Shown here: positions 4,267-49,402 of the stretch, one piece after another
Layout of the letters: the number at the start of each line of letters is the position of its first letter
Position numbering within the stretch: the first letter of the stretch is position 1
IMG/VR virus record: IMGVR_UViG_3300028902_000450
Direction: 5' to 3' (one strand)
Length of the DNA stretch: 52,754 nt
Source of the DNA: a virus
The notes under the pieces: model-generated
Told to the model about the DNA's origin: nothing
The model's database searches: none
What the model saw: only the letters and a program-made list of their open reading frames with translations
Position numbers and translations under genes: made by a program

Positions 4267-4283
4267 GTCTTTTTGTTGTCTAG

Positions 4284-4307
4284 TTACCAAAAGGGTTCTT
4301 TTGGTAA
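4284..4307. repeat. Perfect 10-bp inverted repeat TTACCAAAAG-ggtt-CTTTTGGTAA, 18 nt upstream of the Cre-like gene
   Basis: Read directly. It can also be parsed as 8-bp arms around an 8-bp core. It may be a lox-like site or an operator. No U-tract follows it on the minus strand. Confidence 0.5.
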
Positions 4308-9875: not shown

Positions 9876-10175
9876 TCAATTCTCCTTTTCAAATTCTTGC
9901 GCGATTTCCTTGCCGAGTTGGGCGAGCATCGCGCGGTCGCCGCGCGTGAGATTGCCCAACTCCCAGTGGTAGCGTAATTCGCCGATGATGTGCTGCGCGG
10001 TAAACGCCGCGTGCACAGTCAAAAGCGTCGTCGTCGGTTCGAGCGCGAGGTCCGGCAGCGTGAAACCGGCGAGCGCGTCGCTGTCGCCGAATTCCGGTTC
10101 GATGGTTTCCTCGGGGCGGACAAATTCGCGCCGCGCGGTTTGCGCGTATGCCGTTTTGCCGTTCGCGCGTTTCAT
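9876..10175 (-). CDS. Hypothetical protein (99 aa)
   Basis: Co-oriented ORF. It overlaps the upstream gene's stop by 4 nt. Confidence 0.6.
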   Translation of the reverse strand: MKRANGKTAYAQTARREFVRPEETIEPEFGDSDALAGFTLPDLALEPTTTLLTVHAAFTAQHIIGELRYHWELGNLTRGDRAMLAQLGKEIAQEFEKEN

Positions 10176-12025
10176 TTCTTGTCCTTTCTCGCTCCGCGCT
10201 CTGTTTTCGACAGTTTGCGCGTGATGGTTTTCAACGCCGCCTGCGTGTATTCGTCCGCGTGTGCTTGCGAGCAGAACACGCCCTTGTCCCCGTTGTCTAC
10301 CCAGCCATCTTCGTTCCTATCGCGCTGGGTCAATTTTTCCGACGTGTTGCCGGCGAACACACCGCAGTGCCAGCAGTTGAACGCGGTGTAGTGGATGGGC
10401 GGCACATCCCACCCGTCCGGGAGCGTTACGCCAAAGCCGGGATGCTGTGCGTCGCGGTTGTCACCGGCGCACAGTGCTTCGACAACCTTTTTCACTTTGG
10501 GATAATTGGTTTCGCGTTCGTTGTTTGAGGCGCTGAAATAACCGGCGATGGCTTCCTGCGCAATGACGCGCAGCGCGACGATAGACAATTGCCATTGCCG
10601 GCGCATGGTCTCATCCGTCGCGGTTTTGAATTCCGACCGGAAGCGCGTTTCAATGGGTTCCGCGCCCAACACCGCGCGGTGATTGCGGAAAAATTCTAAC
10701 GCGATAAATCCGACGAACGTCCCGCGATGATGTGGGGTCAATGCCGCGCCGATTTCGAGCGCGGCATGTTCCATCACCCACAAACCGTCATAATACGATT
10801 TCCACATTGCGGAACGCGCCGCGCGTTTGGCGTCCATTTCTTTTTGCTCTTGTGCGACGCGTTTCGCGCGTTCGGCGTCGCTTTCGGTGTCTGTGGACAC
10901 GGCGCGCGCTGGTTTGGCGGGCGCATTGCGTTCGGCGAAATACGCGTCAATTGCATTTTTGTCGGTTGTGACCAGGGTGAGCGCAGCGGATCCGAGCACG
11001 TGCGACAAGGAATTGTGATATTCACCGGCATACGGCGCGAGGCGCAATACCGCGCGAACGTCCTTGCGCGCGTTGAGCAGGTCCCGCGCGCGGTCGTCGT
11101 CGCCATACGCGTTGCGGAATAACGGGGTTGTGGTTTCGCCCGGCGCAACGGCGGAGATTTTCAGTTTGGCGGACACGCGCGCGGCTTCTGCTTCGGCAAA
11201 CATTTTATTTTTTTCGTCGCGGCAGAGTTTGCGCGCGCAGCGGTTCCCGCCGACATTGAACACGCAGCCGGCACACGCGCCAATGAAATTGTCCCCGTCG
11301 CCGAGGTCCAGGGTCGTCTCGACCGGCGCGTCCTCCAACCAATCGAGCGTCCAATTGCCGAGCGGCACGAGTTTGTTGGAATAGTTGCGGCGAATGGAGT
11401 TATCGAACGTTTCCTGCTTTGCCGATTTCGGCGCGGCTGCCACTTCGTCCGCGATTTTTTGTGCCGCTTTCGGATTCACCGCGGCGACGCCGACGAGTTG
11501 CCGCGCCAGCGCATCGGGCAACTCGTCGTTGGCGACGTGCTGCTGGATCGGCGCGGGCAAGCGCAACAGTTTGCGAATGTTGCTGATGCTTGCCGGGTCC
11601 TTGAGACGGAACACGCGCGCGAGGTCCGCATTCGTGGCATCGGGGCGCACCTGCTTGTAGGTTTCAATCATTTGCGCGCGCTCGATGTCGTTCAGGTCAG
11701 TGCGGTGGATGTTTTCTTCTATTACACCCTCAAGCATTTCAAAATTGGTGAGCGGTTTGAGAATTACAGTAAAGGGTGGTTCGTCTGGAAACGCGGCGCG
11801 CCACGCGGCGAGGCGGCGATGTCCCATTTGCAATTGCACCGCGCCGCTGACGTCGGGATGCGGACGCGCGGGCGGGGGTTGGTGGATGCCGTTGACGCGG
11901 ATGTCTTCGACGAGCGCATCGAATTCCTCGCCGCGAAAACGGCGCGCGGAGTGATGTTGATAGGGGTTGGCGAAAACGAGTTCGGGGTCGAACGCGCGGA
12001 GCGTTCCGTTCGGTTGGTCAGACAT
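10172..12025 (-). CDS. Large ParB/Srx-domain protein (617 aa)
   Basis: The N-terminal ParB-like domain contains VQLQMGHRRLAAWR and ENIHRTDLNDIERA, followed by an HTH-like segment (NADLARVFRLKDPASISNIRKLL). Cys-rich C-terminus. The RBS context is GGGAGACCC. Confidence 0.75.
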   Translation of the reverse strand: MSDQPNGTLRAFDPELVFANPYQHHSARRFRGEEFDALVEDIRVNGIHQPPPARPHPDVSGAVQLQMGHRRLAAWRAAFPDEPPFTVILKPLTNFEMLEGVIEENIHRTDLNDIERAQMIETYKQVRPDATNADLARVFRLKDPASISNIRKLLRLPAPIQQHVANDELPDALARQLVGVAAVNPKAAQKIADEVAAAPKSAKQETFDNSIRRNYSNKLVPLGNWTLDWLEDAPVETTLDLGDGDNFIGACAGCVFNVGGNRCARKLCRDEKNKMFAEAEAARVSAKLKISAVAPGETTTPLFRNAYGDDDRARDLLNARKDVRAVLRLAPYAGEYHNSLSHVLGSAALTLVTTDKNAIDAYFAERNAPAKPARAVSTDTESDAERAKRVAQEQKEMDAKRAARSAMWKSYYDGLWVMEHAALEIGAALTPHHRGTFVGFIALEFFRNHRAVLGAEPIETRFRSEFKTATDETMRRQWQLSIVALRVIAQEAIAGYFSASNNERETNYPKVKKVVEALCAGDNRDAQHPGFGVTLPDGWDVPPIHYTAFNCWHCGVFAGNTSEKLTQRDRNEDGWVDNGDKGVFCSQAHADEYTQAALKTITRKLSKTERGARKDKK

Positions 12026-14147: not shown

Positions 14148-14435
14148 GACGCGCGACACTCCCGACGCTCACGCGGGCGAGGGATGGTCACTGTAGACCG
14201 CGTTGGTGTTGGCAGCACCGCGCGGTCATTTTTATTTATCGGGGGGGCAACATCGCCGTCCGTGATGGTGTTTTCGCAGACACGCACATCACGGAACGCG
14301 TTTCGTGATGCAATGTCACTCCCCCGACAGTTTGGGCAAACGCTGCCGCGCGGTCCGCCTGACCGCCGCGTTGACGTTTCCCCTGACGCGACATGTTCCG
14401 GTGTTGCCGGTCATGCGTCGCGTCATTTTTTTGCG

Positions 14436-15431
14436 ATGGTAAAAAAACAGAATACCTACATCGTTCCAGGAGTTTCGGACCCTATGCGACTGCGCGACGC
14501 CATTCATTTTTTTATTAGTGCACGCGTCCACACGGTCACACACAAAACTTTGAGAAACAATGAACTCTACTTACGTTCATTGACCGACTGTCTGGACAAT
14601 CCGTTCGTTAACGAAATCTCTTTGCACGACCTGCGCCGCTGGCGCAGCACGCTCTTTGAAAAACAGGAACGCTATCTGGCGCACAACCGCCGCGCGCCCG
14701 TTCGGGGCGGCTACAGCATCTACACCATCAAGGGGATGGTGGAGGCGGTGCGTCAGTTATTCAATTGGTTGAATCGGGAAGGATATTTGGAGACAAACGT
14801 AGCGCGGAAATTGGAACTGCCGACCCTGCCGGCGGGTCCGCCGAAAGCGATTACGCCGCGCGATTTGGAGAAACTGATTGAAACCGCGCGGCACTCGGCG
14901 ACCGTAACCTTGTCGGCGCGCAATGTGGCGTTGATTTTGTTTTTGCGCGATACCGGATGCCGCCTGTGCGGCGTCGCCGGCTTGCGCCTGGAACAACTCG
15001 ACACGCCAAACTGTCGCGCGCTGGTGTGGGAAAAAGGGCGGGGCGGTAAATCAAAAGCGCGGGCGGTCTTTTTTACGAAAGAATCGCAAGCGGCGCTGAA
15101 TCAGTGGCTTGCCGCGCGTCCGGCAGCGTTGCCGCTGCCGGGTGAAACACTTGACGACCACGTGTTCGTCGCCGAGCGTTATCCGTTCAAGCCGTTGACG
15201 GAAGAGGCGATTTATTGCGTCTTCCGCGCGCTAAAAAAAAGGGCGGGGATTACGGGGCGAGTGAATCCGCACTCGCTCCGGCACGCGCGGGCGAAAACGA
15301 TGTTGGAACACGGCGCGCCGTTGGGTGTGGTGTCGCGCGTGTTGGGTCACTCGGACATTCGCGTCACCGATGCGTACTATGGCGTTTATGCCGCGAGTGA
15401 GTTGCAGGAGCAATATAACAAGTACGCGTGA
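14436..15431 (+). CDS. Tyrosine integrase (XerC/D-phage type), ~331 aa
   Basis: LFLRDTGCRLCGVAGL (Arg), NPHSLRHARAKTML, LGHSDIRVTDAYYGVY (Tyr), with a SAM-like N-domain. The start could be 14436 or 14484. Confidence 0.85.
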   Translation: MVKKQNTYIVPGVSDPMRLRDAIHFFISARVHTVTHKTLRNNELYLRSLTDCLDNPFVNEISLHDLRRWRSTLFEKQERYLAHNRRAPVRGGYSIYTIKGMVEAVRQLFNWLNREGYLETNVARKLELPTLPAGPPKAITPRDLEKLIETARHSATVTLSARNVALILFLRDTGCRLCGVAGLRLEQLDTPNCRALVWEKGRGGKSKARAVFFTKESQAALNQWLAARPAALPLPGETLDDHVFVAERYPFKPLTEEAIYCVFRALKKRAGITGRVNPHSLRHARAKTMLEHGAPLGVVSRVLGHSDIRVTDAYYGVYAASELQEQYNKYA

Positions 15432-23049: not shown

Positions 23050-24843
23050 CTATTTCGATTTTTTGTTGGTCGCGGCGTTCGTCGTCTTGGGGGCGGGTTT
23101 GACTTTGTCCTTTGCCTTTGCTTTCGACGCCGCTGATTCCGGCTTTGCTTTGCTCACGGGTGCGGAAGCGTCGGGTTCGGCTTGTGGCGTCTCATCGGGT
23201 TTCGGCGTTTCGTTCGTCGGCGTGGGTTTGTCCGCTTTCGGTTGAACCGTATCGCCGATGTGCATGGGCATCATCACATGGCGATAACGCGGCAGGGCGA
23301 TATAGCCCGGCGTGCTCGACGTTGTGACGCGCAGGGCGATGGGGTGCGCACCATTGTTGAACGCCGCCGCGCGCAGCGCATCGCTCAAGAAATCCGCGTT
23401 GAACGCAATCTCGAAATTTTCTTCGGGCTGCCACGCGGGGTCGAAGGTTGCGGGAATGATTTCGGCGACGTCGCCCGTGTCCGCGCTCGATGCGGCGACG
23501 AGCACATGGTCGGCTTTGACCGTGAGCCGCGCGCAGTGCGTTTCGCTGATGAGGTTCACGCGTTGCAGCGCCGCCAGCGCGGGTTCGACGGCGAGCGGGA
23601 GATACGGCAGCGACGGCACAGGGTTAGGAACGATTTGATTAAAGTCGGGGAAATTGCCGTCAATCAGATTCATGCGTAATCCGCCCGCGTTCGTTTCCAC
23701 CTGAACCATGCCGTATTCCAACACGCCTTTCTTGTCGAGTTGGAGATGAAAGAGGAACTGAATCGGTTTCGCCTCGTCGGTCGCGATTTTCAACGTTTCC
23801 GCGAACACTTTGGCGGGCACAATCAGACCGAGTGAATCGAGCGGTTGGTCAGCGTCGAAATGCAGGGTCACATCGCGTTCGAGCACCGCGAGCCGAAACC
23901 CATCGGCGCTGCTGAATTCAAGCGTCACGTTTTGCCCGGACGTGGCGGGGAATTTGCCAGAGACATAGACACCCTGCAAGACTGGGCGCGCATCGTCGGT
24001 TGCCACACACGGCACAATGCGCTTGACGATTTCGTTCACCGCCTCGTGCGTCATATCGGCACCGACGACGATAGATTTGCCGTTGAACGCGGTCGCGGGG
24101 GGAAACTCGCTGGCATCCAGAGACTTGAGCGACACATTCAAACGTCCCGCTTCGATGCGCGTGAGGTAGGTTTTGGCGTCGGTTGTGAGCGTGACCAACA
24201 CATCGTCGTTCACGCGCGCCAGCAAGTCGCCGAGCAAATGCGGCACGCACACTTTGCCTGGACGCAGCACTTTGGCTTGCGCGAGATGCCAAAGGGTGAA
24301 ATTCAAATCGGTTGCGGTAAAGCGCAGCGACTCGGCGTCGAGCGCTTCGATGAGGATGTGCGAGAGCACGGGAATGCTCGACCCTTTGCCGCGCGCCCGG
24401 TCCACGTTTTTGAGCGCGGCTTTCAGCGCGCCGGCGCGTATCACAATCTGTTGTCCCGTTTTTTCGGATGGGACCGATTCCGCTTGGACCGTGGGCGCGG
24501 GCTTGTCCGCAGACAAGTTCGCCGTGACATCCGCCGCGAGTTCGAGCGCGGCGTCAATTGCGGCTTGGTCGCGTGCGGCTTGTTCCATCTCCGCATTCTG
24601 GACGAGCAATTCCGCTTTGGCGGTGATGATTTGTTCTTCCGTTTGCGGCGTTGGTTTCGGCGTGATTTGTTTGCGCGCCGCGCGTTTGGCAGGCGCTTGC
24701 GGTTTCGGAGCGGGTGCGATGGGCGTTTGCGCTTTTGCGGTCTTGACGGATTTGGTCTTGACGACATTTGTCTTGGCGTTCGCGGATTTGGCTTGTATGG
24801 CTTTAGCGATGCGCGCGTTTTCTTTTTGCAGTTTGGTATTCAC
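23050..24843 (-). CDS. dnaN: DNA polymerase III beta sliding clamp homologue with Lys/Ala/Pro-rich N- and C-terminal extensions (597 aa)
   Basis: The core (IPVLSHILIEA..LRFTATDLNF...ASEFPP...DDARPVLQGVYV...EFSSADGFRLAV) is colinear with bacterial DnaN. The tails contain KTKSVKTAKAQTPIAPAPKPQAPAKRAARK and SKAKAKDKVKPAPKTTNAATNKKSK. GTG start after AGGAGACCCAAA. Confidence 0.8.
   Translation of the reverse strand: MNTKLQKENARIAKAIQAKSANAKTNVVKTKSVKTAKAQTPIAPAPKPQAPAKRAARKQITPKPTPQTEEQIITAKAELLVQNAEMEQAARDQAAIDAALELAADVTANLSADKPAPTVQAESVPSEKTGQQIVIRAGALKAALKNVDRARGKGSSIPVLSHILIEALDAESLRFTATDLNFTLWHLAQAKVLRPGKVCVPHLLGDLLARVNDDVLVTLTTDAKTYLTRIEAGRLNVSLKSLDASEFPPATAFNGKSIVVGADMTHEAVNEIVKRIVPCVATDDARPVLQGVYVSGKFPATSGQNVTLEFSSADGFRLAVLERDVTLHFDADQPLDSLGLIVPAKVFAETLKIATDEAKPIQFLFHLQLDKKGVLEYGMVQVETNAGGLRMNLIDGNFPDFNQIVPNPVPSLPYLPLAVEPALAALQRVNLISETHCARLTVKADHVLVAASSADTGDVAEIIPATFDPAWQPEENFEIAFNADFLSDALRAAAFNNGAHPIALRVTTSSTPGYIALPRYRHVMMPMHIGDTVQPKADKPTPTNETPKPDETPQAEPDASAPVSKAKPESAASKAKAKDKVKPAPKTTNAATNKKSK
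24502..24517. repeat. Dyad motif copy CTTGTCCGCAGACAAG
   Basis: In dnaN (minus strand), in frame as LSADK. Confidence 0.9.
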
Positions 24844-26303: not shown

Positions 26304-27233
26304 TTATTGTTTTTTGCCTTTGGCTTTGTTCGGTGGAAATGCCATGCCGTAGCGCAGCATCGAATCGTACAACGTGCCGACAATCGGCGCTGCCACGTCG
26401 CGCAGGTGCGGGTCGTCGCTGGTGAGAAGCATTTGCAGGTACGCCGCGAACGATTCGCCGATACCGCCAACCTTTTTCATTTCGGGTAAGCGTTCGTCGA
26501 GCGGAAAACGCCGCGCGTAATTGGCGTTGCGAATGGCATTGCGTTCGTCCACCGCTTGTTGAATCGCCGAGTTGGGATTGGTGAAGGATGCGAGGTCAAA
26601 GAGCGTTTCATTGGCTTGCTCGGCGAGCAAATTGCCGCAGAGGATTTTGAATTCTTTGAGCACCGGCTTGGCGGTCCCGGTGAGATAGGCGAGCGCGATG
26701 CGCTGGCGGTTGGTGTCAAGCGGCGCCATCACTTCGCCGAAGGTATCGGTGATTTGTTTCGTGCGAATCAATTCTTGCACGTCAGGTATGAGATTGAGCA
26801 GCGATAAACGCGCGGCGACGTGCTTGGCGTTGCGGTTCGATTTCTCGGCGGTCTCGCTCACCGTCCAGCCGAATTTTTCCATCCGCTTTTTGTACGCCGT
26901 CGCTTCATCTATGGGGTCAATGTCGACGCGATGCACATTTTCCGAGAGCATGATGGCAGCGGCTTGTTCGTCGTTGTATTCGCGGATGATGGCGGGAATG
27001 GTTTGCCAACCGAGCGAACTCACGGCGCGGAATCGGCGTTCGCCCGCGACGATTTCAAATTGATAGGGTCCGTCCGTAAACGGACGGACAGTTATCGGCT
27101 GTGCGAGCCCGTTGGCTTGAATATCGGCGGCGAGCGCGTTCAGGGCATTCGCGTCGAAGACGGTGCGGTCGTTGTCGCCGGCGCGAATGACTTTCACCGG
27201 CACATTGTTTATTTGGTCGAGTTTCGTTTTCAT
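26304..27233 (-). CDS. parB: ParB/Spo0J-family protein (309 aa)
   Basis: ParB N-domain with IVAGERRFRAV and LSENVHRVDIDPIDEA, followed by an HTH region. The start follows AGGAGACCC. Confidence 0.8.
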   Translation of the reverse strand: MKTKLDQINNVPVKVIRAGDNDRTVFDANALNALAADIQANGLAQPITVRPFTDGPYQFEIVAGERRFRAVSSLGWQTIPAIIREYNDEQAAAIMLSENVHRVDIDPIDEATAYKKRMEKFGWTVSETAEKSNRNAKHVAARLSLLNLIPDVQELIRTKQITDTFGEVMAPLDTNRQRIALAYLTGTAKPVLKEFKILCGNLLAEQANETLFDLASFTNPNSAIQQAVDERNAIRNANYARRFPLDERLPEMKKVGGIGESFAAYLQMLLTSDDPHLRDVAAPIVGTLYDSMLRYGMAFPPNKAKGKKQ

Positions 27234-27275
27234 GGGTCTCCTGACATTTCGCCTTTGGAAATGAAACAACCTGCG

Positions 27276-27890
27276 CTATTCAAACAGCGCAGGTTGCGAT
27301 TGGTCGTCTTGAGAATTCTTTCCGGCTTTGCCCCAGTCGTCGCCGCGAATAAAGTCATGTATCCAGAATTCGCGTGCCCGTTCGACGTAGGGGTTTTCAA
27401 TGTCCGAGAGCGGTTCGAGTAAGCAGCCCTCGTCAAGCCAATGCTCGTAACTCCGTTCCATCTTGCGCCCGCGCCCGGTGTGTTTGTCGAGTGCATAGTC
27501 GGGAATGTCCAACCGTTTGCCGTGCCGCCGTTCCTGCTCGACGACCGTGTTGAATTCGTCGGCGATGCGAGATTTCGGCGACCGGCACATGGCGAGAATG
27601 GTTGTCGCCAGAATGAGTTTCGCCGAACCGTTGCCGTTGCGCGTCGAGCGAAATTCAAAAAACGCGGCGCGCTGCTGCGGCACGAGCAAAAGCAGCGCGA
27701 CATTCGCGATGCCAATGTCCTCGTTGACGATGACGACGAGGCGGCGCCAGAGATACGCTTCGTAAAGCGGCGTGAGTTCGAGCGCCCAGTAGTACGCGTG
27801 CGCTTCATTGCCGCGGCGAATTTCCTTTTGGAGCGCGCTGATTGCCTCCATCAGGTTGTAGCCGTTTTGGGTTTTGGCTTGGTATTGCAT
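27276..27890 (-). CDS. Stand-alone MgsA/RarA C-terminal-domain protein (204 aa, no AAA+ module)
   Basis: ISALQKEIRRGNEAHAYYWALEL...RRLVVIVNEDIGIAN...LATTILAMCRSPKSR...IPDYALDKHT is colinear with the AAA_assoc_2/MgsA_C region of RarA. Confidence 0.6.
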   Translation of the reverse strand: MQYQAKTQNGYNLMEAISALQKEIRRGNEAHAYYWALELTPLYEAYLWRRLVVIVNEDIGIANVALLLLVPQQRAAFFEFRSTRNGNGSAKLILATTILAMCRSPKSRIADEFNTVVEQERRHGKRLDIPDYALDKHTGRGRKMERSYEHWLDEGCLLEPLSDIENPYVERAREFWIHDFIRGDDWGKAGKNSQDDQSQPALFE

Positions 27891-27893
27891 GGT

Positions 27894-28103
27894 CTATTGC
27901 TCCTTCGCTTGAGGTTGGGGTTGTTGGTCCCGGGCGTAGACCCAGTGACAATCCATTTGCCCACAATGCGGGCAAGTGGCGAACTCGGTAAGACGCGCGG
28001 CGGCATTGCTGCCGAGTTCATATCCTTCGCGGTCATGGGACAAATCAAATTTGCCCTGACAGCGCTTGCACCGGGCGGGTGTTCCCGCTGAATAAGTCTG
28101 CAT
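27894..28103 (-). CDS. Zinc-ribbon protein (69 aa)
   Basis: CKRCQG...CPHCGQ. Confidence 0.55.
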   Translation of the reverse strand: MQTYSAGTPARCKRCQGKFDLSHDREGYELGSNAAARLTEFATCPHCGQMDCHWVYARDQQPQPQAKEQ

Positions 28104-28218: not shown

Positions 28219-29064
28219 ATGAATCAATTTCGCGACCGCATCATAGAGGTCAAAAAAGTAAAGTCACGGGAACTACTCGACAATGAGGGGAATTGGCGAT
28301 TGCATCCGGACGCGCAGCGTGAGACCATGACCGGCGTTTTGAATGAAGTCGGCAAAGCGGATGTGTTGCTCGCGTATTATTCCGCGCGCAACAACAATCA
28401 ATTGACGCTGTTTGATGGTCACTTGCGGAAAGCGTTGGATGCGGACGAAGAGTGGACCGTCGCCATCACCGATTTGAGCGACGCCGAAGCGGACAAGATG
28501 CTGCTGGTGCTCGACCCGCTCGCGGCGATGGCGGAAATGAATAAAGCGCGCCTGTTGGATTTAACAGACCGCGTCAACACAGATGATTTGATGGTGCGCG
28601 AGCTGCTACGCAAAATGGAACTCGAAGCGCAGCGCATCGGCGAAGAAGACGAGGACGGCGAAGGCGGCAAAAAAGAAAAGACCGGTCCCGCCGCGATGGA
28701 GTTGATGCCGTTCGAGCATTACGATTATGTGCTGCTCATGTTCAAGAATGAGTTGGATTGGTTGGCTGCCGTTGACACGCTCGGTCTGGAGCGACGCGCC
28801 GATTTGCGCAAGACGAACAAGATTGGCTTGTGTCGCGTTGTCAGCGGCAAACAAGTCATCGAGCGCATACAACAGTTGGAATTTCAGAACGCGAATTACG
28901 CGAATCAAACGAAACCCGCGAAAGAAGAACCAACGCATGAGAATAGTCATACCGAGCCGGAAACGCGCGGACACGATAGCGAACCGGACGCTGAAACTGT
29001 TTCCCGACGCCATCGTGACAGTGGACGAACGCGAGCGCGACGAGTACAGAAACGTCACGCCTAA
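28219..29064 (+). CDS. ParB-like N-terminal (nuclease/NTPase-type) domain protein without a methyltransferase module (281 aa)
   Basis: NWRLHPDAQRETMTGVLNEVGKADVLLAY...LFDGHLRKAL...LSDAEADKMLLVLD is the ParB-N type usually seen fused to phage DNA methylases. The 3' end overlaps the next gene by 128 nt. Confidence 0.6.
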   Translation: MNQFRDRIIEVKKVKSRELLDNEGNWRLHPDAQRETMTGVLNEVGKADVLLAYYSARNNNQLTLFDGHLRKALDADEEWTVAITDLSDAEADKMLLVLDPLAAMAEMNKARLLDLTDRVNTDDLMVRELLRKMELEAQRIGEEDEDGEGGKKEKTGPAAMELMPFEHYDYVLLMFKNELDWLAAVDTLGLERRADLRKTNKIGLCRVVSGKQVIERIQQLEFQNANYANQTKPAKEEPTHENSHTEPETRGHDSEPDAETVSRRHRDSGRTRARRVQKRHA

Positions 29065-29659
29065 TTTAGTTTTGCATCCACCGTTTGAATCTCTTGCGGA
29101 GATTTTGAATTGGATTGTGGACGCGTTCGACGATGAAACGCTCGTCGTCGCGGAGGACGACATCACGCGTTGCGTCTCGTTTGTTGGGAACAATGTGCGC
29201 GTGTTCCGCAATCCCGCCGAGGTACTCCAGATCGTCGAGAATTGCGCGGAAGCGGCGCGCGGCGCAGGCGCGCGGATGTTTGGATTCACCGATTCCGCAA
29301 ACCCAAAACATTTCAAACCACAAGACCCGCTCTCATTCGTTGCGAACCTCTACACGATTTACGGGTACGTGGGGAAGCAGGTGCGGAGTGACCCGAAACG
29401 CAGATTGTTCCGCGACATGGACACATCGCTGACTGAGTTGATGAACAATCGCATTGTGTACTGCGACACGCGTTTTCATTTTGAATCCGTCGCGCCGCTG
29501 CGACAAGGCGGCGGTAACGCAGTCAATCGGGCGCGCGAGGATTTAGCAGGCGCGATGGATTTCATGCAGCGCAAATGGGGTCATTACGTCCGCGCAGGCA
29601 AGAGCGGAGATTTGGTGTTGAATGTGGGGGGAATCAAACGCCGCCAAGCCAAAGTATGA
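28937..29659 (+). CDS. GT-A / nucleotide-diphospho-sugar-transferase-like protein, paralogue 1 (240 aa)
   Basis: N-terminal MRIVIPSRKR, a DxD-like VVAEDDI about 85 aa later, and conserved blocks shared with 29656-30426. Confidence 0.5.
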   Translation: MRIVIPSRKRADTIANRTLKLFPDAIVTVDERERDEYRNVTPNLVLHPPFESLAEILNWIVDAFDDETLVVAEDDITRCVSFVGNNVRVFRNPAEVLQIVENCAEAARGAGARMFGFTDSANPKHFKPQDPLSFVANLYTIYGYVGKQVRSDPKRRLFRDMDTSLTELMNNRIVYCDTRFHFESVAPLRQGGGNAVNRAREDLAGAMDFMQRKWGHYVRAGKSGDLVLNVGGIKRRQAKV

Positions 29660-30426
29660 ATCGAATGAACTCCATTCGCGTTATCATTCCAAGCAAAGGG
29701 CGTTCCAAGACCATCGCACAGTATTCGCTTGCGTTGTTTCCTCATGCCGTCGTGTCTGTTGACGAGCGCGAGGTAGACGATTACGCGCCGGTGATTGCAC
29801 AGGTCGCCCACAAGGGAGCGACCCTACTGCCCCACCCGCCGCTGCGCTATCTGCCGCAAATCCGCAACTGGCTGCTCGACAATGTCGCCGACGAATCGTT
29901 CGTCATGGTTGACGACGATGTGCGACGCGTGTACAGCAAAGTCGGCAAGGTCATCAAGCATTATCGCAAACCCAATGATGTGATGCAGATCATTGAGAAC
30001 GCGCACGAATGCGCGCGTGGAATTGGCGCGCGTTTGTTTGGGTTCACGCAGGACGGCGGCGTGTTTGGATTCAAACCAACCGACCCGCTGCGCTTCAACG
30101 GTTGGGTTGGAACCGTGTTCGGTGTCATCGGGCGCGGTATCCGCTATGACGAGCGAATCACCATCGGCAGCGAAGATATGGATTTGTCACTGCAACATTT
30201 GCAGGAGCATCGCATCATCTTTATTGACGAACGCTTTCACTTTGAATCGCCGAATCGTCTGCGCGCGTTGGGCGGCGTCTCGGTGAATCGTTCACTCGAG
30301 CGCGAGATGCAAGACAGTGAATTGATTCAAACGAAGTGGGGCAAGTTCATTGAGGTCTATTTCAAAGAGAGTGGAATTCGCGTCAAGAGCGTGCGAGTGC
30401 CGCGGCGACAGGCGAAAGTGAAGTGA
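29656..30426 (+). CDS. GT-A / nucleotide-diphospho-sugar-transferase-like protein, paralogue 2 (256 aa)
   Basis: IRVIIPSKGRSKTI, VMVDDDV, and shared blocks GARLFGFT, FKPTDPL, RFHFES, KWG, RRQAKV. ATGA coupling to paralogue 1. Confidence 0.5.
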   Translation: MNRMNSIRVIIPSKGRSKTIAQYSLALFPHAVVSVDEREVDDYAPVIAQVAHKGATLLPHPPLRYLPQIRNWLLDNVADESFVMVDDDVRRVYSKVGKVIKHYRKPNDVMQIIENAHECARGIGARLFGFTQDGGVFGFKPTDPLRFNGWVGTVFGVIGRGIRYDERITIGSEDMDLSLQHLQEHRIIFIDERFHFESPNRLRALGGVSVNRSLEREMQDSELIQTKWGKFIEVYFKESGIRVKSVRVPRRQAKVK

Positions 30427-31052
30427 TGGACGCGAAAGCGGAAAAATCGCCTTCGCTGATTTGGGAAAGACGCGAGGGCGAGCCGAACAAATGGTTTGAC
30501 CGATTTCAAACTTACTTGCTGCTCGGTTCGTCGCGGTCGCTCTATGCGGCATACACGGCTTGGCGCGAGCGGAATGGCGCGAACCGCGCGCAAAAGCGCG
30601 CGGGATTGCCGCAATCGTGGCGTCTGGCGGCGGAACGTTGGGAATGGGCAAAACGCGCGGAGCAATTTGACGAACACGAACGCGCGCAGCACGTGGCAGA
30701 ATGGGCGCGCCGGCGCGATGAATTGCGCGAACACGAGTGGAAATTTTCGCAAGAATTGTTGGACAAAGTGCGTCAAATGCTCGTGTTCCCATTAGCGAAA
30801 ACGGTGCGCTCGACGCAGGACGGCGGGCAGACGGTGGTCACAGAGGTTTACCCGGCAAATTGGAAACTCGCCGACGCCGCGCGCATGTTGGAGGCGGCGA
30901 GTAAATTGGCGCGGCTCGCCGTCGGTGTCGAAACCGAACGCATCGGCGTTGACGTTGGTCTGACGGCAGATGATTTGGTGCGTGCCGCGCGCGAAGTGAT
31001 GGAATGGGAGCAGCAAACCTATGGCAGCTTGTCTGCGGACAAGACGGAGTAG
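30426..31052 (+). CDS. Small-terminase-like protein, paralogue 1 (208 aa)
   Basis: WFDRFQTYLLLGSSRSLYAAY...GLPQSWRLAAERWEWAKRAEQFDEHER is an HTH-type TerS N-terminus, paralogous to 33061-33741. Confidence 0.55.
   Translation: MDAKAEKSPSLIWERREGEPNKWFDRFQTYLLLGSSRSLYAAYTAWRERNGANRAQKRAGLPQSWRLAAERWEWAKRAEQFDEHERAQHVAEWARRRDELREHEWKFSQELLDKVRQMLVFPLAKTVRSTQDGGQTVVTEVYPANWKLADAARMLEAASKLARLAVGVETERIGVDVGLTADDLVRAAREVMEWEQQTYGSLSADKTE
31028..31043. repeat. Dyad motif copy CTTGTCTGCGGACAAG
   Basis: At the 3' end of TerS-like paralogue 1, in frame as LSADK. Confidence 0.9.
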
Positions 31053-31446: not shown

Positions 31447-31483
31447 AAAAGCCGCGCGGAGAAATTCTCCGCGCGGCTTTTTT
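31447..31483 (+). terminator. Intrinsic terminator
   Basis: AAAAGCCGCGCGGAG-aaatt-CTCCGCGCGGC followed by TTTTTT. Confidence 0.8.
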
Positions 31484-31511: not shown

Positions 31512-31937
31512 ATGGTCATTGATGCAGCGATTCTGATTGCGCTGGGGGGCGTGATTACGGCAGTGATAGCATTTTTCCCGGCATTTTCGGGATACATCCA
31601 ATCCCGAGCAAACGCAAAAAAAATTGAATCGGAGGCGCACACGATAGCGCGCAAGGACGAAATTACGTCGCTGCGTGAAGAAGTGGCGCGTCTCTCCGGG
31701 CGCGTGGACGAGCTCTCGACCGCGAACGCGCGTTTACAAAATGAGAATCTGCATTTGCAGGCGCAAGTCATTGCGCTGCGCACTGAAAACGCGTGGCTGC
31801 GCACGCAATTACGCCAGAGTGGTATCGAGATTCCCCCTCTGCCCCCTGAAATTCGCGAATTGACGACGGATTTATCGAATTCGCCGAATCCAAAGGATTC
31901 GACAAGCACGATGAGAGCAAACAACAATGACGCCTAA
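31512..31937 (+). CDS. Membrane-anchored coiled-coil protein (141 aa)
   Basis: N-terminal TM helix AAILIALGGVITAVIAFFPAF, then heptad-like EEVARLSGRVDELSTANARLQNENLHLQAQVIALRTENAWLR. Confidence 0.6.
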   Translation: MVIDAAILIALGGVITAVIAFFPAFSGYIQSRANAKKIESEAHTIARKDEITSLREEVARLSGRVDELSTANARLQNENLHLQAQVIALRTENAWLRTQLRQSGIEIPPLPPEIRELTTDLSNSPNPKDSTSTMRANNNDA

Positions 31938-32055: not shown

Positions 32056-32865
32056 ATGTTCGCGTTTCGTTCATCTCGTTTGGTCCGCGTCGCGGTGATT
32101 GCGTTGACGCTCGTGCTGGCGGTGCTCGGCGGCGCGCTCACCCCCGCGTTGACGCATGCGGCGCCGCCCGCGCAGACCCCGCCGACGGGCGCGCCCGAGT
32201 TGGCGCAAACGGTATCCGCGTTTCTCGATTTGCTGATTGCGTTCATTGTTGGCGGCGGCGTCGCGTATGTGCTGCAAATGATTACGGCGTGGACGGAATG
32301 GAAATCGCCGTTCAAGCCGTGGGTCGTCGTACTGCTGACTGCACTCATCGGCGCTGCACTGACATCTCTCAAAGTACTGGCGACGGCAGAACTCTTTTCA
32401 CAAGTGCCCGATTGGGGGCGTGCCTTCATTGGTTTCATCGTTGTGTTTGTTGGCAGTCAAATCACGTATCAGCGCGGATTTAATCCCGCATGGGCAACTG
32501 TGACGCGCGTGGGCGTTGTAATCGCGGTCTTGCTGCTCGGCGGCGCGTTGGTGATGGCGAACGCGCCCGTTGCGAACGCGGAATCGCCTGCCGCTGACCG
32601 TCTCGCACAAGAACCCGCGTTGTACTGCGTTGCGCTCGAAGTGGGTTTGCCCGCCGATGCGGTCGCGCTCGCGAAAATCAAATTCGATACGCGTTTCGGA
32701 TTCGCGCACAACCTCGCGACGGCGGACGAATGGTCCGTCACGTGGGGCGACCGAATGCAATTTTTTGTTGACTGGCTTGGTGTGCCGAATCCCACGCATG
32801 GCGGAACGCTCAAGCCCTGGTGCGCGCGTTTAGTTGCCGCGCAGGCGCGCATCTTGGAGCCGTGA
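32056..32865 (+). CDS. Multi-pass membrane protein with signal peptide (269 aa)
   Basis: Signal-like MFAFRSSRLVRVAVIALTLVLAVLGGALTPALTHA, about 4 TM helices, and a soluble C-terminal ~100 aa. RBS AGGAGG. Confidence 0.65.
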   Translation: MFAFRSSRLVRVAVIALTLVLAVLGGALTPALTHAAPPAQTPPTGAPELAQTVSAFLDLLIAFIVGGGVAYVLQMITAWTEWKSPFKPWVVVLLTALIGAALTSLKVLATAELFSQVPDWGRAFIGFIVVFVGSQITYQRGFNPAWATVTRVGVVIAVLLLGGALVMANAPVANAESPAADRLAQEPALYCVALEVGLPADAVALAKIKFDTRFGFAHNLATADEWSVTWGDRMQFFVDWLGVPNPTHGGTLKPWCARLVAAQARILEP

Positions 32866-33060: not shown

Positions 33061-33741
33061 ATGGACGACGCTACCCAACCGTGGGCGCGTCAAACGAAAG
33101 AACCCGCCCTTTGGTTTGACCGCTTTCAACGCTACCTGCTGCTCGGCGTGACCCGTTCGGTGTATCGCGCCTATATGGTTGAGCGCATGGAAACCGCGCG
33201 CACGGTCACGCAAATTAAAAAATTGAACGCGCAGGCATCGCACCGCACCGGCTTGCCGCAGTCGTGGCGAGCGCAATCGAAACGATGGAATTGGAGCGAA
33301 CGCGCGCAGCAGTTCGATGAAGCGGAGCGCACCAAACGATACGCGGCATATCAGGCGCGCGCCGACGAGATTCTGACCAGCGGTCTGGCACTCCAATTCG
33401 CGCGCATCGAGGAATTGAAACAACTCGCCGAGCTCTTGCGCGACGAAGTGCGCGACGAGAATAAACGCTGGCTGCCTGACGCCAAACAAATCGGCGCCGG
33501 AGAATTTGCGGAACGCGTGGACATTGTGCGATTTAATGCGCCACTCGTACAGCAATTGCGCGAGACGATTGCAGACATTGCGATTGAAAAGGGCGAGCGC
33601 ACGCACGGTGTCAAACTCTCGGGCAAAGTCGCCGTCGCGCAGGTCTCGCTCGACGATGTGCTTGCTGCTGCGGACGCAGTCAAGCAGGATGAGCAATCCA
33701 TTTTGAAACAAATCGGCAAACCTTCCGAACAGAATGAATGA
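33061..33741 (+). CDS. Small-terminase-like protein, paralogue 2 (226 aa), adjacent to terL
   Basis: WFDRFQRYLLLGVTRSVYRAY...GLPQSWRAQSKRWNWSERAQQFDEAER. It overlaps the terL start. Confidence 0.65.
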   Translation: MDDATQPWARQTKEPALWFDRFQRYLLLGVTRSVYRAYMVERMETARTVTQIKKLNAQASHRTGLPQSWRAQSKRWNWSERAQQFDEAERTKRYAAYQARADEILTSGLALQFARIEELKQLAELLRDEVRDENKRWLPDAKQIGAGEFAERVDIVRFNAPLVQQLRETIADIAIEKGERTHGVKLSGKVAVAQVSLDDVLAAADAVKQDEQSILKQIGKPSEQNE

Positions 33742-35159
33742 CCAAAATCGAAATTCGCGAAGGTCTCAAGTGTCAAAAATCGGCGCTGTATTTTATTTAT
33801 CAGTACGTCCAGATTTATGACGCGACGCGGCGGGAATGGGTCCCGTTTCATTTGTATCCCGCGCAAGTTGAAGTACTGAATGCGCTCCTTTCCAATTCGC
33901 TGCTCGTGATTTTGAAAGCGCGTCAACTCGGAATGACATGGCTGGTGCTCGCGTTCGTGTTGTGGTCCATGCTCTTTCATCCTATCGTCACCGCATTGCT
34001 CTTTTCCAAGCGCGATGACGAGGCAACCTATCTGCTCGGCGTCGAACGCCTCAAAGGGATGTATGAACGGCTGCCGCAATTCTTGAAAGCGCGGAGCATC
34101 GAAGTAGACAACGACCATGAGTGGCTGCTGTCGCAGGGTTCGATTGCGCGGGCGTTCCCGACGAGCGCGGGGGATTCCTACACGGCGAGCATTGTGTTTG
34201 TGGACGAAGCCGATTTGGTCCCCGACCTCAATCGGCTGATGAATTCGGCAAAGCCGACGATTGATGCGGGCGGCAAATTGATTTTGCTCTCGCGTGTGGA
34301 CAAGACGAAACCGCAGAGCGAATTCAAAAACATCTACCGCGCGGCAAAGGCAGGCACAAACGGGTGGTATCCGATTTTTTTGCCGTGGACGGTGCGCCCG
34401 GAGCGCACGCCCGAATGGTACGAGCAACAAAAGCGCGACATTCTCGCCCGCACAACCGCGCTCGATGACCTGTATCAGCAATATCCGGCGACCGATACCG
34501 AAGCGTTGTCACCGAACACACTGGACAAACGCATTGCGGCATTGTGGCTGGAGCAATGCTACAGCGAACACTTGAGTTTGTCCGCAGACAAGTTGCCCGA
34601 AGGCGCGCCGAGCATTCCGGGTCTGACGATTTACAAACTGCCCGAACCAAATCGCAAGTACGTCATCAGCGGCGACCCGGCGGAAGGCAATCCGACATCG
34701 GATGATTCGGCGAGCGAGGTGTTGGACAAGGACACGGGCGAAGAGGTTGCGAGTCTCGCGGGGAAATTTCAACCCGCCGTGTTCGCGGCGCACATTGACA
34801 CGATTGGAAAATTTTTCAATCGCGCTGACGCGATGATAGAGCGCAACAATCATGGACACGCGGTCTTGCTCTGGCTGCGCGACAATTCAAGTTTAAGAAT
34901 TTTGACAGGATTCGACGACAAGAACGGCTGGCACTCGACGGTGCTGGGCAAGACGATGTTATACGACGCGTGCGCGGACGCGTTCCGCAATAAAGAGACC
35001 ATGCTGCATAACTTCACGACGTTCACACAATTGAGCATGATTGAGGGCTCGACCCTGCGCGCGCCGGAGGGCGAGATGGACGACCGCGCGGATGCTTACG
35101 CGTTGGCACTCGTGGCGCGTGTGCGCGCGGGCAGTCGCGCGAGCGTGGATTGGGTGTGA
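33738..35159 (+). CDS. terL: Terminase large subunit (473 aa)
   Basis: LYPAQVEVL...LVILKARQLGMTW (Walker A variant), IVFVDEAD (Walker B), and the nuclease-region motif GEMDDRADAYALA. Confidence 0.85.
   Translation: MTKIEIREGLKCQKSALYFIYQYVQIYDATRREWVPFHLYPAQVEVLNALLSNSLLVILKARQLGMTWLVLAFVLWSMLFHPIVTALLFSKRDDEATYLLGVERLKGMYERLPQFLKARSIEVDNDHEWLLSQGSIARAFPTSAGDSYTASIVFVDEADLVPDLNRLMNSAKPTIDAGGKLILLSRVDKTKPQSEFKNIYRAAKAGTNGWYPIFLPWTVRPERTPEWYEQQKRDILARTTALDDLYQQYPATDTEALSPNTLDKRIAALWLEQCYSEHLSLSADKLPEGAPSIPGLTIYKLPEPNRKYVISGDPAEGNPTSDDSASEVLDKDTGEEVASLAGKFQPAVFAAHIDTIGKFFNRADAMIERNNHGHAVLLWLRDNSSLRILTGFDDKNGWHSTVLGKTMLYDACADAFRNKETMLHNFTTFTQLSMIEGSTLRAPEGEMDDRADAYALALVARVRAGSRASVDWV
34578..34592. 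repeat. Dyad motif copy TTGTCCGCAGACAAG
   Basis: In terL, in frame as LSADK. Confidence 0.9.
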
Positions 35160-35163: not shown

Positions 35164-35481
35164 ATGAGTACATTGCCTACATTGCCAAACGAAACAACAT
35201 TCCAAGTTGCGCCATTGCAGTTGGTGTATGCGGTCTGGATTCGTGGACACGGCTGGCTGAAAGAAAAAGACGACGACGCGCAAACCACGTTCGTGGCGTT
35301 CAGCCCCGAAGTCGCCGAATCCGCCGCGCGCTTGTGGGGCAGCGACGCAGAGGTATTGCCGTTCGACCAATCATTGCTCGACTTGGAACAAAAGTTTTTG
35401 CGGCGCGAACAAGAATTGCAGGCACGACGCGGCGTTATCGCGTGGTTAATCGCATGGCTGCACACTCCGCGCGATTCGTGA
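35164..35481 (+). CDS. Hypothetical protein (105 aa)
   Basis: Internal ATG (MSTLPTLPNE) of ORF 35041-35481. Confidence 0.5.
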   Translation: MSTLPTLPNETTFQVAPLQLVYAVWIRGHGWLKEKDDDAQTTFVAFSPEVAESAARLWGSDAEVLPFDQSLLDLEQKFLRREQELQARRGVIAWLIAWLHTPRDS

Positions 35482-35510
35482 CATCGGGTGCGCAGACATG
35501 CGAAAACAAA

Positions 35511-37724
35511 ATGGCATATTGGGCTGACGTTTCCAATCAATTGAATCGCGCGCAGCGGCAAGCGCAGTACGTGACGACGATGGCGGGCTCGTGGGCGGGC
35601 GGTCCGGTCAGCGACCCGGACCCATCGCTGTACGCGAACCAGGCGCGGCTCATGCAGCAGCTGTCGTGGGTCTATTCCGCGATTTCGCTCGTGTCGCAGT
35701 CTGCCGCGTCTCTCGCACAATTCCAAGTCCTGCAGCTGCGCGCCGAAACCAAAAAGCCGATTGTCAATCACGCGTTTGAACAACTCTTGCGCGCGCCGAA
35801 TCGTTATCAGTTCGATTCGCAGTTTGAGTTTTTCGAGGCGCTATTCGGTTTTTTGAAACTGAGCGGCAATTGCTATTTGTATCTGAACGCGCTTTCGCCC
35901 GAGCTGCCGCCTGCCGAGATTTATATTTTGCGCCCCGACCGCGTGATGGTCGTCCCGGACCGTCAAACCTTTGTGCGCGGTTACGTGTTCAATGTGGACG
36001 GCGCCGAGCTCGCGTTCGACCGCGATGAAATTGTGCATATCAAGGCGTGGCATCCGCTCAACGATTGGTATGGTCTCACCGCGATTGAGGCGCTTTCAAT
36101 GGCTGCCGAGACCGACCTGAAAGAAGCGGGTTGGAATAAGAACTTTTTCGACAAACAATTTGCGAAACCACAGGGCGCGCTCGCGTACAGCGACATGGTC
36201 AACGATACCGACTGGGACCGCATGAAAACCGAAGCGAAAGAAGAGCATGGCGGGACACAGCGGCGGCTGATGATGCTGCGCGGCGCGGGCAAGGGCGGCG
36301 TGCAGTGGCTACAGATGGGTTTGTCGCAAAAGGACATGGAATTCATCACCGGTCGCCAATTCAACAAAGAGGAAATTTACCAGGGACTTGCGCCGGGTCT
36401 CTTGCAAATGCTTGACAAAAATTCGACGGAAGCAAACAGCATCGCAGGCGAAAAGGTTTTCCGTGAATACACGCTATATCCGCTCTTGAAACGTGTGCAA
36501 GAAAAATTCACCGCGAGAATTTTACCGCGTTATGGGGACGCCAGCGCGGACGGCAGCGGGCTTGTCGGGGAGTTTGATGAAATTCGCGCGCGTGACCGCG
36601 TGCTCGACATGCAGGAACGCCAAGCATACGAACGCGTTCATACCATCGCTGAAGTGCGCGCGAAATTTGATAACGACGCGCCGCTGGGCGACGAACGGGA
36701 TGATCTGCTCGTCGCGCAGGCGCAATCGTTCAATCCGAACGCGTTTGCGATGACCACTACAAACGCGTGGAACGCGAACACGACGACCGACGCCTCGGAT
36801 GAGTCGGATGTAATCATCCGCACATCCGCCACCATGCCGCCGCAAGCTCCCAGTGTCCGCAACGCCGAGAACGCGGACGAAGCAGGAGACATGATTGACA
36901 AGAACGCGAGCAAAGACGAAGCAAAGGCAGGCAATCAAGACGGCTTGATGATTGCGCTCGCACTCCCGACGGGCGCGGCGCTCACGCTGCACCAACTCGC
37001 GCAAGAGACGTTCGGCGAAAACGCGGATGTGACTCCTTCCGATGAAATGCACATCACCCTTGCCTATTTTGGCAGCGCGGAACAAATGAATGTCTCGCGC
37101 GAAACGCTGACCGCGCTCGTGCGCGCGTTTGCTGCCGAACATTCGCCCATCAATGGCATGGTGAGCGGCGTCGGACGATTTACGCAAGTGGATGCCGACG
37201 GACGCAGCGCGTTCTATGCGTCGTTTGATTCGCCCATGCTGCCGCGGCTGCAAAGCGATTTGATAGAACTGCTCGACGGCGCGGGCGTGTCTGTGGACAA
37301 GACGCATGGTTTTACGCCGCACATCACGCTCGCGTATGCTCGAATTGGAGAACATTCGGACGCGAATTTTGATTTAGCGCAGTTGCATACGCCCAACACG
37401 CAAATCACCTTTGATGCCGTGACGCTCGCGTGGGCGGGAGAGTGGGACGCGTTCGCGCTGGGCGCAATTCCGATGCTCCTGCCGCATCCAAATGAGCCGA
37501 GCGACGAACAAAAGGCGTTCGCATCCGACATTGCCGCGTGGGAACGCAAAGCATTGAAACGAGTGCGCGAGCACGGCGCACTCGCCGATGCGCTCGAATT
37601 CAAATCGGACGCGCTCGCGCCGGCGTTGCTCCATTCCATTCGCGGCGCGCTCGAAGCGGCGACAACTGCGTTAGAAGTCAAAGCGATTTTTCAGAACGCG
37701 CGCGCGTGGCATTCCTATCCGTGA
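35511..37724 (+). CDS. Portal protein (HK97 family) fused to a C-terminal 2H phosphoesterase (LigT-like) domain (737 aa)
   Basis: Portal core: NHAFEQLLRAPN...GNCYLYL...IVHIKAWHPLNDWYGLTAIEAL...GGVQWLQMGLSQKDMEF. C-terminal domain with two HxT motifs, EMHITLAYFG and TPHITLAYAR. Start at MAYWADV. Confidence 0.8.
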   Translation: MAYWADVSNQLNRAQRQAQYVTTMAGSWAGGPVSDPDPSLYANQARLMQQLSWVYSAISLVSQSAASLAQFQVLQLRAETKKPIVNHAFEQLLRAPNRYQFDSQFEFFEALFGFLKLSGNCYLYLNALSPELPPAEIYILRPDRVMVVPDRQTFVRGYVFNVDGAELAFDRDEIVHIKAWHPLNDWYGLTAIEALSMAAETDLKEAGWNKNFFDKQFAKPQGALAYSDMVNDTDWDRMKTEAKEEHGGTQRRLMMLRGAGKGGVQWLQMGLSQKDMEFITGRQFNKEEIYQGLAPGLLQMLDKNSTEANSIAGEKVFREYTLYPLLKRVQEKFTARILPRYGDASADGSGLVGEFDEIRARDRVLDMQERQAYERVHTIAEVRAKFDNDAPLGDERDDLLVAQAQSFNPNAFAMTTTNAWNANTTTDASDESDVIIRTSATMPPQAPSVRNAENADEAGDMIDKNASKDEAKAGNQDGLMIALALPTGAALTLHQLAQETFGENADVTPSDEMHITLAYFGSAEQMNVSRETLTALVRAFAAEHSPINGMVSGVGRFTQVDADGRSAFYASFDSPMLPRLQSDLIELLDGAGVSVDKTHGFTPHITLAYARIGEHSDANFDLAQLHTPNTQITFDAVTLAWAGEWDAFALGAIPMLLPHPNEPSDEQKAFASDIAAWERKALKRVREHGALADALEFKSDALAPALLHSIRGALEAATTALEVKAIFQNARAWHSYP
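37287..37301. repeat. Degenerate dyad GTGTC-TGTG-GACAAG (13 of 15)
   Basis: In the portal 2H domain, same frame (VSVDK). It may be coincidental. Confidence 0.4.
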
Positions 37725-49395: not shown

Positions 49396-49402
49396 TAACG
49401 CT

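Follow-up and report, generated by a model that had tools for sequence, protein, structure and literature searches.

The analysed DNA is IMG/VR virus record IMGVR_UViG_3300028902_000450, a stretch of 52,754 nucleotides (nt) that is referred to here in its entirety as the window. The subject of this study is a group of plus-strand genes at 28219-30426, which encode a ParB-like protein (gene A) and two tandem paralogues (genes B and C), together with a minus-strand neighbour of gene A. In the first-pass annotation, the three plus-strand genes had been proposed to form a module for the sugar modification of DNA or virion proteins. The features on which the argument depends are as follows.

28219-29064, plus strand: gene A, ParB-like protein of 281 amino acids (aa), described from an AlphaFold model, Foldseek and alignment
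28708-28908, plus strand: C-terminal domain (CTD) of A, aa 164-230, the part of A that tracks the glycosyltransferase (GT)
28937-29659, plus strand: gene B, TAGT-like GT-A glycosyltransferase paralogue 1, 240 aa (PF20691, phrog_842)
29656-30426, plus strand: gene C, TAGT-like GT-A glycosyltransferase paralogue 2, 256 aa (PF20691, phrog_842, structural model)
27276-27890, minus strand: RarA/MgsA C-terminal-domain-like (MgsA_C-like) protein, 204 aa (PF12002 MgsA_C, E=2.7e-10), divergent from gene A

The start of B was set at ATG 28937 because the N-terminus MRIVIPSRKR is kept in all homologues, and B and C overlap by the sequence ATGA. Their products align over 250 residues with 43% identity (E=4e-67). 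The coordinates of two coupled paralogues of ~240-256 aa were thus confirmed, and all of the shared motifs that had been listed for them (IPSxxR, (E/D)DD, GAR(M/L)FGFT, FKPxDPL, RFHFES, KWG and RRQAKV) are present in the B-C alignment. When 21 sequences were aligned, the Ser and Arg of IPSxxR, two Asp of DDD, the Asp in (E)D(M/I)D and a GG were invariant. The acidic motif, which follows beta-4, reads DDD in C (residues 86-88) and EDD in B, and its last two Asp are the invariant ones. This motif set fits R...DDD...ED(Y/F), the active-site pattern of phage GT-A DNA glycosyltransferases and of the trypanosome JGT (bioRxiv 10.1101/2023.12.21.572611). Since B retains nearly all of the conserved positions (the invariant S, R, DD, D and GG among them), each of the two copies seems capable of catalysis. 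Orthologues of B were found only in the closest relatives (L085, 89% identity; L003, 79%; L004, 67%), so the duplication appears to be lineage-specific and retained; the nearest non-orthologue of B is of the C type. Independent tandem GT pairs occur in L111 and in phage phiRSL1 (B2ZYD6/7).

An AlphaFold model of C (predicted local distance difference test score, pLDDT, 87.9; predicted template-modelling score, pTM, 0.86) has a Rossmann-like alpha/beta/alpha GT-A fold. It was compared with the PDB, in which 173 matches were obtained at E<=1e-3. These were led by the GT-A enzymes AvpGT, WrtF, RmlT and TarP, with template-modelling (TM) scores of 0.5-0.6; AvpGT was the top neighbour, but it is a weak structural match. 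Glycosyltransferases ranked above nucleotidyltransferases in this comparison, in line with the GT-A reading of the first-pass annotation. In BFVD, a database of predicted viral structures, the top ~21 matches were mostly TAGT-domain proteins or beta-glucosyl-HMC-alpha-glucosyltransferases (several were unnamed), with TM scores of 0.66-0.81 and E-values from 1e-16 to 1e-9. A clear gap separates them from generic GT-A proteins at ~0.5. Among these top matches are a Klebsiella phage beta-glucosyl-HMC-alpha-glucosyltransferase and the adjacent phiRSL1 gene products B2ZYD6/7.

The paralogues, which had been left without a family name, could be placed in PF20691 (TAGT) and phrog_842 (“beta-glucosyl-HMC-alpha-glucosyltransferase”) as a divergent branch. 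PF20691 matched B with 25.7 bits (E=1.2e-5) and C with 23.1 bits (E=8e-5), the gathering threshold being 27.5 bits; phrog_842 matched B at E=5e-9 and C at E=2e-10. Most of 22 homologues, including one that is 90% identical, carry a precomputed PF20691.4 match. HHalign of the window GT subfamily with three canonical TAGTs gave a probability of 53% (E=1.4e-4). A local hidden Markov model (HMM) of the subfamily misses canonical TAGT, the reverse is also true, and the GT profile retrieved only chance matches from the PDB sequences. Given the scores below the cut-off and the HHalign probability, B and C are best described as a divergent sister subfamily of TAGT and not as strict members. The TAGT class (the T2/T6 enzyme, the 5mYOX-associated phage GTs and the structurally related JGT) shares with B and C the GT-A fold, the R...DDD...(E)D motifs, a length of ~250 aa and the occurrence of tandem GT pairs. 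The window GTs differ from canonical TAGTs in that they form a separate subfamily, have no TET/JBP, C5-methylase or hydroxymethylase partner, and are always paired with a ParB-like protein that bears a dedicated CTD. Members of TAGT add sugars to DNA, e.g. to glucosyl-5-hydroxymethylcytosine (glucosyl-5hmC) as the acceptor in T2/T6 (PMC13390438, PMC13216743), and TAGT-class enzymes in metavirome clusters act on 5hmC (bioRxiv 10.1101/2023.12.21.572611).

Gene A contains the ParB-like N-terminal domain that had been recognised from the motifs NWRLHPDAQ (residues 25-33) and DGHLRKAL (66-73). The AlphaFold model comprises, in this order, a ParB/Srx domain (aa 1-104), a pair of helices (109-145), an acidic, disordered linker (147-162), the small CTD (164-230) and a tail (231-281); the blocks of the nucleotide-binding domain (NBD) have pLDDT values of 86-98. 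Foldseek matched the N-domain to Noc, ParB, PadC, KorB and sulfiredoxin (Srx), with E-values down to 8e-6. No Pfam family, PF02195 included, matched gene A at E<=1; among its relatives, PF02195 was matched only by homologue P0141 and, weakly, by the protein of L002. Across 40 sequences, N25 is invariant, R27, G67, H68, L69 and R70 are conserved at >=90%, and PFEHYDY is conserved. N25/R27 and G67-R70 fall at the phosphate-binding positions of ParB box I (N/Q-x-R) and box II (GxxR). The N-domain is thus modelled as a ParB/Srx fold that, judging by the position of its conserved residues, is of the nucleoside triphosphate (NTP)-binding type. The CTD is a small beta-alpha-beta-alpha unit that includes PFEHYDY, G203 and R206. 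A catalytic HxD in this domain, considered because E-H-Y-D-Y is invariant in the 40 close sequences, was rejected: the motif is not universal, reading PFERYQY in phage KaiHaiDragon and LYEQNNY in Javan291. The last 128 nt of the A frame (~42 codons) overlap the start of B. Because homologues align only to ~residue 230 and the A-B overlap in relative L003 is a mere 35 nt, functional A probably comprises ~230 aa plus a variable tail.

The trio was sought in other phage genomes and is syntenic in L003, L004 and L085, at 67-89% identity. A word-indexed search yielded 645 homologues of gene A, and 468 viral contigs were found to carry relatives. Of the 84 loci that were fetched, 28 had full-length A with its CTD, and a B/C-type GT lay directly downstream in 28/28 (in L040, the GT was detected although the adjacency filter had missed it). 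No B/C-type GT was present in any of 57 loci with ParB relatives that consist of the N-domain only. A second scan used the PFEHYDY pattern and one genome per species. It located 33 prophage-like loci in Chloroflexota/Anaerolineae, Planctomycetota, Myxococcota, Bradyrhizobium, Verrucomicrobiota and other hosts; the GT was downstream in 30, and of the other three, two lie at contig ends. Taken together, the CTD is followed by the GT in 58/61 loci, vs 0/57 for loci that lack the domain. Clustering at 50% identity gave 228 clusters, in which the CTD always ends proteins of ~200-250 aa. The CTD of A is the part that is specific to the B/C-type GT. The ParB-like protein had been suggested as a possible partner of the transferases; this near-obligate synteny, together with a published phage ParB that acts as an activator (PMC13229309), strengthens that proposal.

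Relatives without the CTD keep different company. A scan of 52 distinct N-only relatives and 35 neighbours matched PF01555 (N6/N4 methylase) in 24 proteins, all of them methylase fusions; in the homologue search, P0116, P0129, P0131 and P0140 also carried this domain. The tendency of this ParB-like domain to be fused to such methylases was therefore borne out, as was the statement that A itself has no methylase domain. The neighbours of N-only relatives included genes for C5 methylases, Tet_JBP, canonical TAGT (sometimes accompanied by UDP-galactopyranose mutase), radical SAM and GNAT proteins; Tet_JBP neighbours occurred solely with relatives that lack the CTD of A (L083, L045). From the methylase fusions and these neighbours, the ParB family appears to be a general companion of DNA-modifying enzymes. 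In viral contigs L022, L050 and L062, CTD-less ParB relatives lie directly upstream of a canonical TAGT, with a UDP-galactopyranose mutase between the two in L022. No Tet_JBP was found between the ParB and TAGT genes of these contigs in a scan that covered that interval only. These three contigs extend ParB-GT pairing beyond the window subfamily.

Uncultured phages and prophages that carry the module number in the hundreds and come from Chloroflexota, Planctomycetota, Myxococcota, Alphaproteobacteria and Actinobacteria. The Planctomycetaceae metagenome-assembled genome (MAG) MFD01112.bin.1.69 (L092, L094-L100) has at least seven copies of a ParB-like + GT element on separate contigs. Seven of these copies align with A at 37-38% identity, all across an identical stretch of the query, which suggests a multi-copy mobile element or a transposable phage.

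The MgsA_C-like gene at 27276-27890 is the only other gene that recurs near the A-GT pair, often directly beside the GT and in either orientation. Within the flanks that were fetched, 31/51 non-redundant A+GT loci had a homologue vs 2/57 N-only loci (Fisher p=2e-11, for loci that are related and not independent). The module loci differ in terminase and portal types, which favours a functional linkage over inherited gene order. We propose this protein, which lies outside the interval first described, as a third component of the module. It aligns with the C-terminal domain of RarA/MgsA/WRNIP1 (PF12002; PDB sequence matches 2r9g, 3bge and RarA 3pvs). Unlike those proteins, it has no AAA+ ATPase module; it stands alone, in linkage with the ParB-GT pair. 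A known defence or anti-defence system was rejected: apart from three NCBIfam AAA-ATPase models (PRK13341), which matched the MgsA_C-like protein far below their cut-offs, no PADLOC or NCBIfam model matched A, B, C or the MgsA_C-like protein. No published function was found for a stand-alone MgsA_C-like phage protein.

The module also occurs in cultured phages. Microbacterium cluster EC phages encode a ParB-like gp84, a GT gp86, a UDP-glucose dehydrogenase gp87 and an “AAA-ATPase” gp88; local HMMs identified gp84 as A with its CTD, gp86 as the GT and gp88 as MgsA_C-like. The literature on cluster EC phages notes only the glycosyltransferase and dehydrogenase genes (PMC7302621, PMC12614000). 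In the lytic phage KaiHaiDragon (L118, NC_048020), the module occupies 48978-52039, and the dehydrogenase gene is flanked by the GT and MgsA_C-like genes. A few small genes separate the module from terS, which lies downstream of it in this circularly permuted genome. The UDP-glucose dehydrogenase hints at a uronic-acid donor. Sugar-nucleotide enzymes encoded in module loci include an epimerase, a GDP-mannose dehydratase and UDP-glucose dehydrogenase. On the contig of P0015/L089 (a Hydrogenedentes MAG), the ParB-like and GT genes are followed by ATPgrasp_Ter, WbqC, PIG-L (deacetylase-like) and terminase large subunit (TerL) genes; the ATPgrasp_Ter, WbqC and PIG-L products could further tailor an attached amino sugar.

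The closest functional precedent for gene A is ParB176, which activates its cognate thymine dioxygenase (5mYOX176) on double-stranded DNA (O'Toole et al., PNAS 2026, PMC13229309). Set against the published description, A shares with ParB176 the NBD, helix-helix, disordered linker and CTD, as well as the lack of a helix-turn-helix (HTH), and its N-x-R and G-x-x-R correspond to the NTP-site residues discussed for ParB176 (PMC13229309). ParB176-type genes and A both sit beside the gene of an enzyme that modifies DNA after replication (for A, a presumed one), in many cases not far from terminase genes. A differs in that its partner is a glycosyltransferase instead of a dioxygenase and in that its CTD is distinct and GT-specific. 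The N-domain and helical segment of A also align with ParB-N6/N4 methyltransferase fusions (E ~1e-30; Kaljevic et al., PNAS 2025, PMC12704722). In those proteins the effector is a covalently joined methylase, whereas A has a separate GT and a small, adaptor-like end domain. In a preprint from New England Biolabs (bioRxiv 10.1101/2023.12.21.572611), ParB-like proteins come up only briefly as neighbours of GTs, and ParB is linked to contigs that contain 5mYOX. No description of a ParB-GT-MgsA_C-like module was found in the literature searched.

The reading that we favour, at a probability of roughly 0.55, is that the module carries out ParB-assisted, post-replicative glycosylation of DNA at the time of packaging-gene expression, with B and C furnishing a disaccharide or two specificities and the RarA-C-like protein as a third partner. 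B and C would belong to the TAGT/JGT-like class of GT-A transferases, with nucleotide sugars as donors and DNA as the substrate. A would be a non-enzymatic, NTP-gated partner of the ParB type: its N-domain would contact DNA or form a closed clamp, and its private CTD would link it to the cognate transferase. A might in this manner let the transferase work on double-stranded phage DNA, as phage ParB does for thymine dioxygenase. Two sugars could be added in sequence by B and C, a scheme known from T2/T6 and from “sequential GT” phage clusters; alternatively, the paralogues may provide two linkage or site specificities, like the alpha- and beta-GT of T4. The RarA-C-terminal-like protein would probably be associated with the replisome or with DNA ends. 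Because the genes are co-transcribed with packaging genes, it is proposed that the DNA is modified just before encapsidation, and the sugar would then protect it against restriction in the next host. The folds, the family placement, the paralogy, the synteny and the lack of known precursor enzymes are observed; DNA as the acceptor, a physical contact between A and the GTs, the timing and the protective role are inferred. As to the acceptor, three options remain: a canonical base or DNA end, the product of a cryptic precursor enzyme, or a non-DNA target.

Several observations weigh against this reading. The window is taken to be a complete circular (or terminally redundant) genome of ~52.6 kb, because its first 141 nt are identical to its last 141 nt (1-141 vs 52614-52754). 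In this complete genome, no Tet_JBP, C5-methylase or thymidylate-synthase-like protein was detected with Pfam, PHROGs or a local 5mYOX profile that was built from two phage 5mYOX. As far as sequence comparison can tell, then, no enzyme for the only known acceptors (5hmC, 5-hydroxymethyluracil (5hmU) and 5-hydroxy-C) is recognisable in it. Precursor enzymes were not among the commonest neighbour families of the other module loci (a single undisplayed match per set is possible), and none is listed in the complete annotation of Microbacterium phage KaiHaiDragon. B and C both score just under the Pfam TAGT cut-off, the HHalign probability is modest, and none of the 228 clusters contains an A-GT fusion protein. 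In the precedent itself, mutants of the NTP-site residues of ParB176 still activate (PMC13229309), so an NTP-gated clamp is unproven even there.

The missing precursor enzymes can be accommodated in two ways. One is that the module is self-sufficient: the ParB-like protein, the TAGT-like GT and the RarA-C-like protein would place sugars on DNA without a hydroxymethyl-pyrimidine precursor, the acceptor being a canonical base (e.g. at an exocyclic amine) or a DNA terminus, and the ParB-like protein would become the first clamp or activator to be known for a DNA glycosyltransferase. We put this forward only tentatively. AvpGT, the top PDB neighbour but a weak structural match, glucosylates the 3'-OH of nucleosides (PMC11959488). 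The other is ordinary hydroxymethyl-pyrimidine glycosylation, in which 5hmU or 5hmC is made by a divergent, unrecognised dioxygenase or hydroxymethylase of phage or host and A activates that enzyme. It is in keeping with the biochemically characterised TAGT/JGT-type enzymes, whose acceptor is in every case a hydroxyl, carried by a modified base or by an already attached sugar. ParB, moreover, has been found by experiment to activate 5mYOX (PMC13229309), and no system is known in which a ParB activates a GT; according to the same paper, divergent 5mYOX without a Pfam annotation occur on thousands of contigs. Several window open reading frames (ORFs), 220-270 aa long, could not be assigned to any family and might encode such an enzyme, but they show no jelly-roll-like HxD...H pattern, and one is a membrane protein. 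With nothing Tet_JBP-like in a complete genome, with only A, the GT and the MgsA_C-like gene conserved across 51 diverse loci, and with a CTD that tracks the GT and not a dioxygenase, we regard this explanation as unlikely.

Two further accounts dispense with DNA as the acceptor or with glycosyl transfer altogether. The GTs might glycosylate virion proteins or a host envelope polymer (cf. the mycobacteriophage capsid and prophage TarP), with the ParB-like and MgsA_C-like genes as mere neighbours at the end of a replication module. The PDB neighbours TarP, RmlT and WrtF do act on teichoic acid or polysaccharide, and the capsid protein has been suggested as the target of actinophage glycosyltransferases (PMC11256854). 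The module GT of cluster EC phages is annotated simply as “glycosyltransferase”, and late co-transcription with packaging genes would suit virion modification equally well. The closest structural class by far, however, is TAGT, not the envelope or protein GTs. The GT is also tied to a specific CTD of a ParB-fold protein across phage backbones with different terminase types, the ParB family of A is otherwise joined to DNA methylases, Tet_JBP and TAGT, and neither a signal peptide nor a membrane segment is evident from the sequences of B and C. Modification of virion or envelope is accordingly judged improbable. The first-pass annotation had also cautioned that cytidylyltransferase-type enzymes share the leading motifs of B and C, which could then be sugar-nucleotide nucleotidyltransferases (cytidylyl- or uridylyl-). 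KdsB, RmlA and UDP-glucose pyrophosphorylases indeed appeared in the PDB fold search at ranks 21-50, but they align poorly (TM 0.38-0.48, root-mean-square deviation ~10 A) in comparison with glycosyltransferases (0.5-0.6) and TAGT (0.66-0.81). The invariant DDD and ED are GT-A metal and donor motifs, and a nucleotidyltransferase function is very improbable.

The immediate surroundings of the module comprise three additional features.

27894-28103, minus strand: small ORF of 69 aa with CxxC...CPHC, zinc-ribbon-like, directly upstream of the MgsA_C-like gene
30423-31052, plus strand: terminase-small-subunit-like (TerS-like) gene 1 (phrog_6299, E=5e-10), overlapping C by GTGATG
31447-31481, no strand assigned: hairpin with a perfect 17-bp stem and T/A runs on either side, from a repeat/hairpin scan

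The 69-aa ORF sits between the two divergent units and has no family match; its membership in the module is uncertain. The trio had been described as lying directly before the packaging genes, and it does so through the overlap of C with TerS-like gene 1. This gene is translationally coupled to C and is regarded as context, not as part of the module core; a role as an integral DNA-recognition part was ruled out, since the gene is not beside the module in L004 and most other loci. It is paralogous to a second TerS-like gene at 33061-33741 (46% identity over the N-terminal 97 aa). Between the two TerS paralogues lie the hairpin, which probably terminates the A-B-C-TerS1 transcription unit, and membrane or coiled-coil ORFs at 31512-31937 and 32056-32865. 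TerL (33738-35159) is directly preceded by the second paralogue only. A repeat scan gave nothing convincing as a parS-like repeat near the module.

Elsewhere, the window genome encodes two integrases, a DnaA_N-like protein, a beta-clamp, a HerA-like ATPase, two ParB proteins besides gene A, and packaging and tail proteins. It has no tRNA genes, and no near-identical DNA was found among GenBank phages. The integrases are tyrosine-recombinase (Phage_integrase) genes at 3265-4290 (minus strand) and 14184-15431 (plus strand). With gene A, the window thus has three ParB-fold proteins; the other two, both on the minus strand, are a 617-aa ParB-like protein at 10172-12025 and a canonical ParB_N+HTH_ParB protein at 26304-27269. 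The HerA/DUF87-like ATPase (5890-7131, minus strand) also matches PADLOC HerA (E=7e-12) and mad8 (E=3e-11). The DNA polymerase III beta-clamp homologue (23050-24843, minus strand; 597 aa) has its clamp domains from ~residue 134 and thus an N-terminal extension. The portal protein (35478-37724, plus strand) ends in a 2H-phosphoesterase/LigT-like domain of the 2'-5' RNA ligase superfamily (~residues 500-652; PF13563, E=1e-14). This domain may be packaged within the virion; that it cleaves cyclic-nucleotide or 2'-5' signals is speculation.

Glycosylation of phage DNA is a major counter-defence against restriction and CRISPR and has been a source of tools, e.g. the beta-GT of T4. The present module would probably be missed by Pfam-based surveys with PF02195 and PF20691, because A is undetected and the GTs fall under the TAGT cut-off. 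It is directly testable, being carried by phages that are already in culture. To our knowledge, every known route to glycosylated DNA begins with the installation of a hydroxyl handle (5hmC, 5hmU or 5-hydroxy-C). If DNA is the target of this module, either a new acceptor chemistry or a hidden precursor pathway would be implied, and the role of ParB proteins as activators would widen from dioxygenases to glycosyltransferases.

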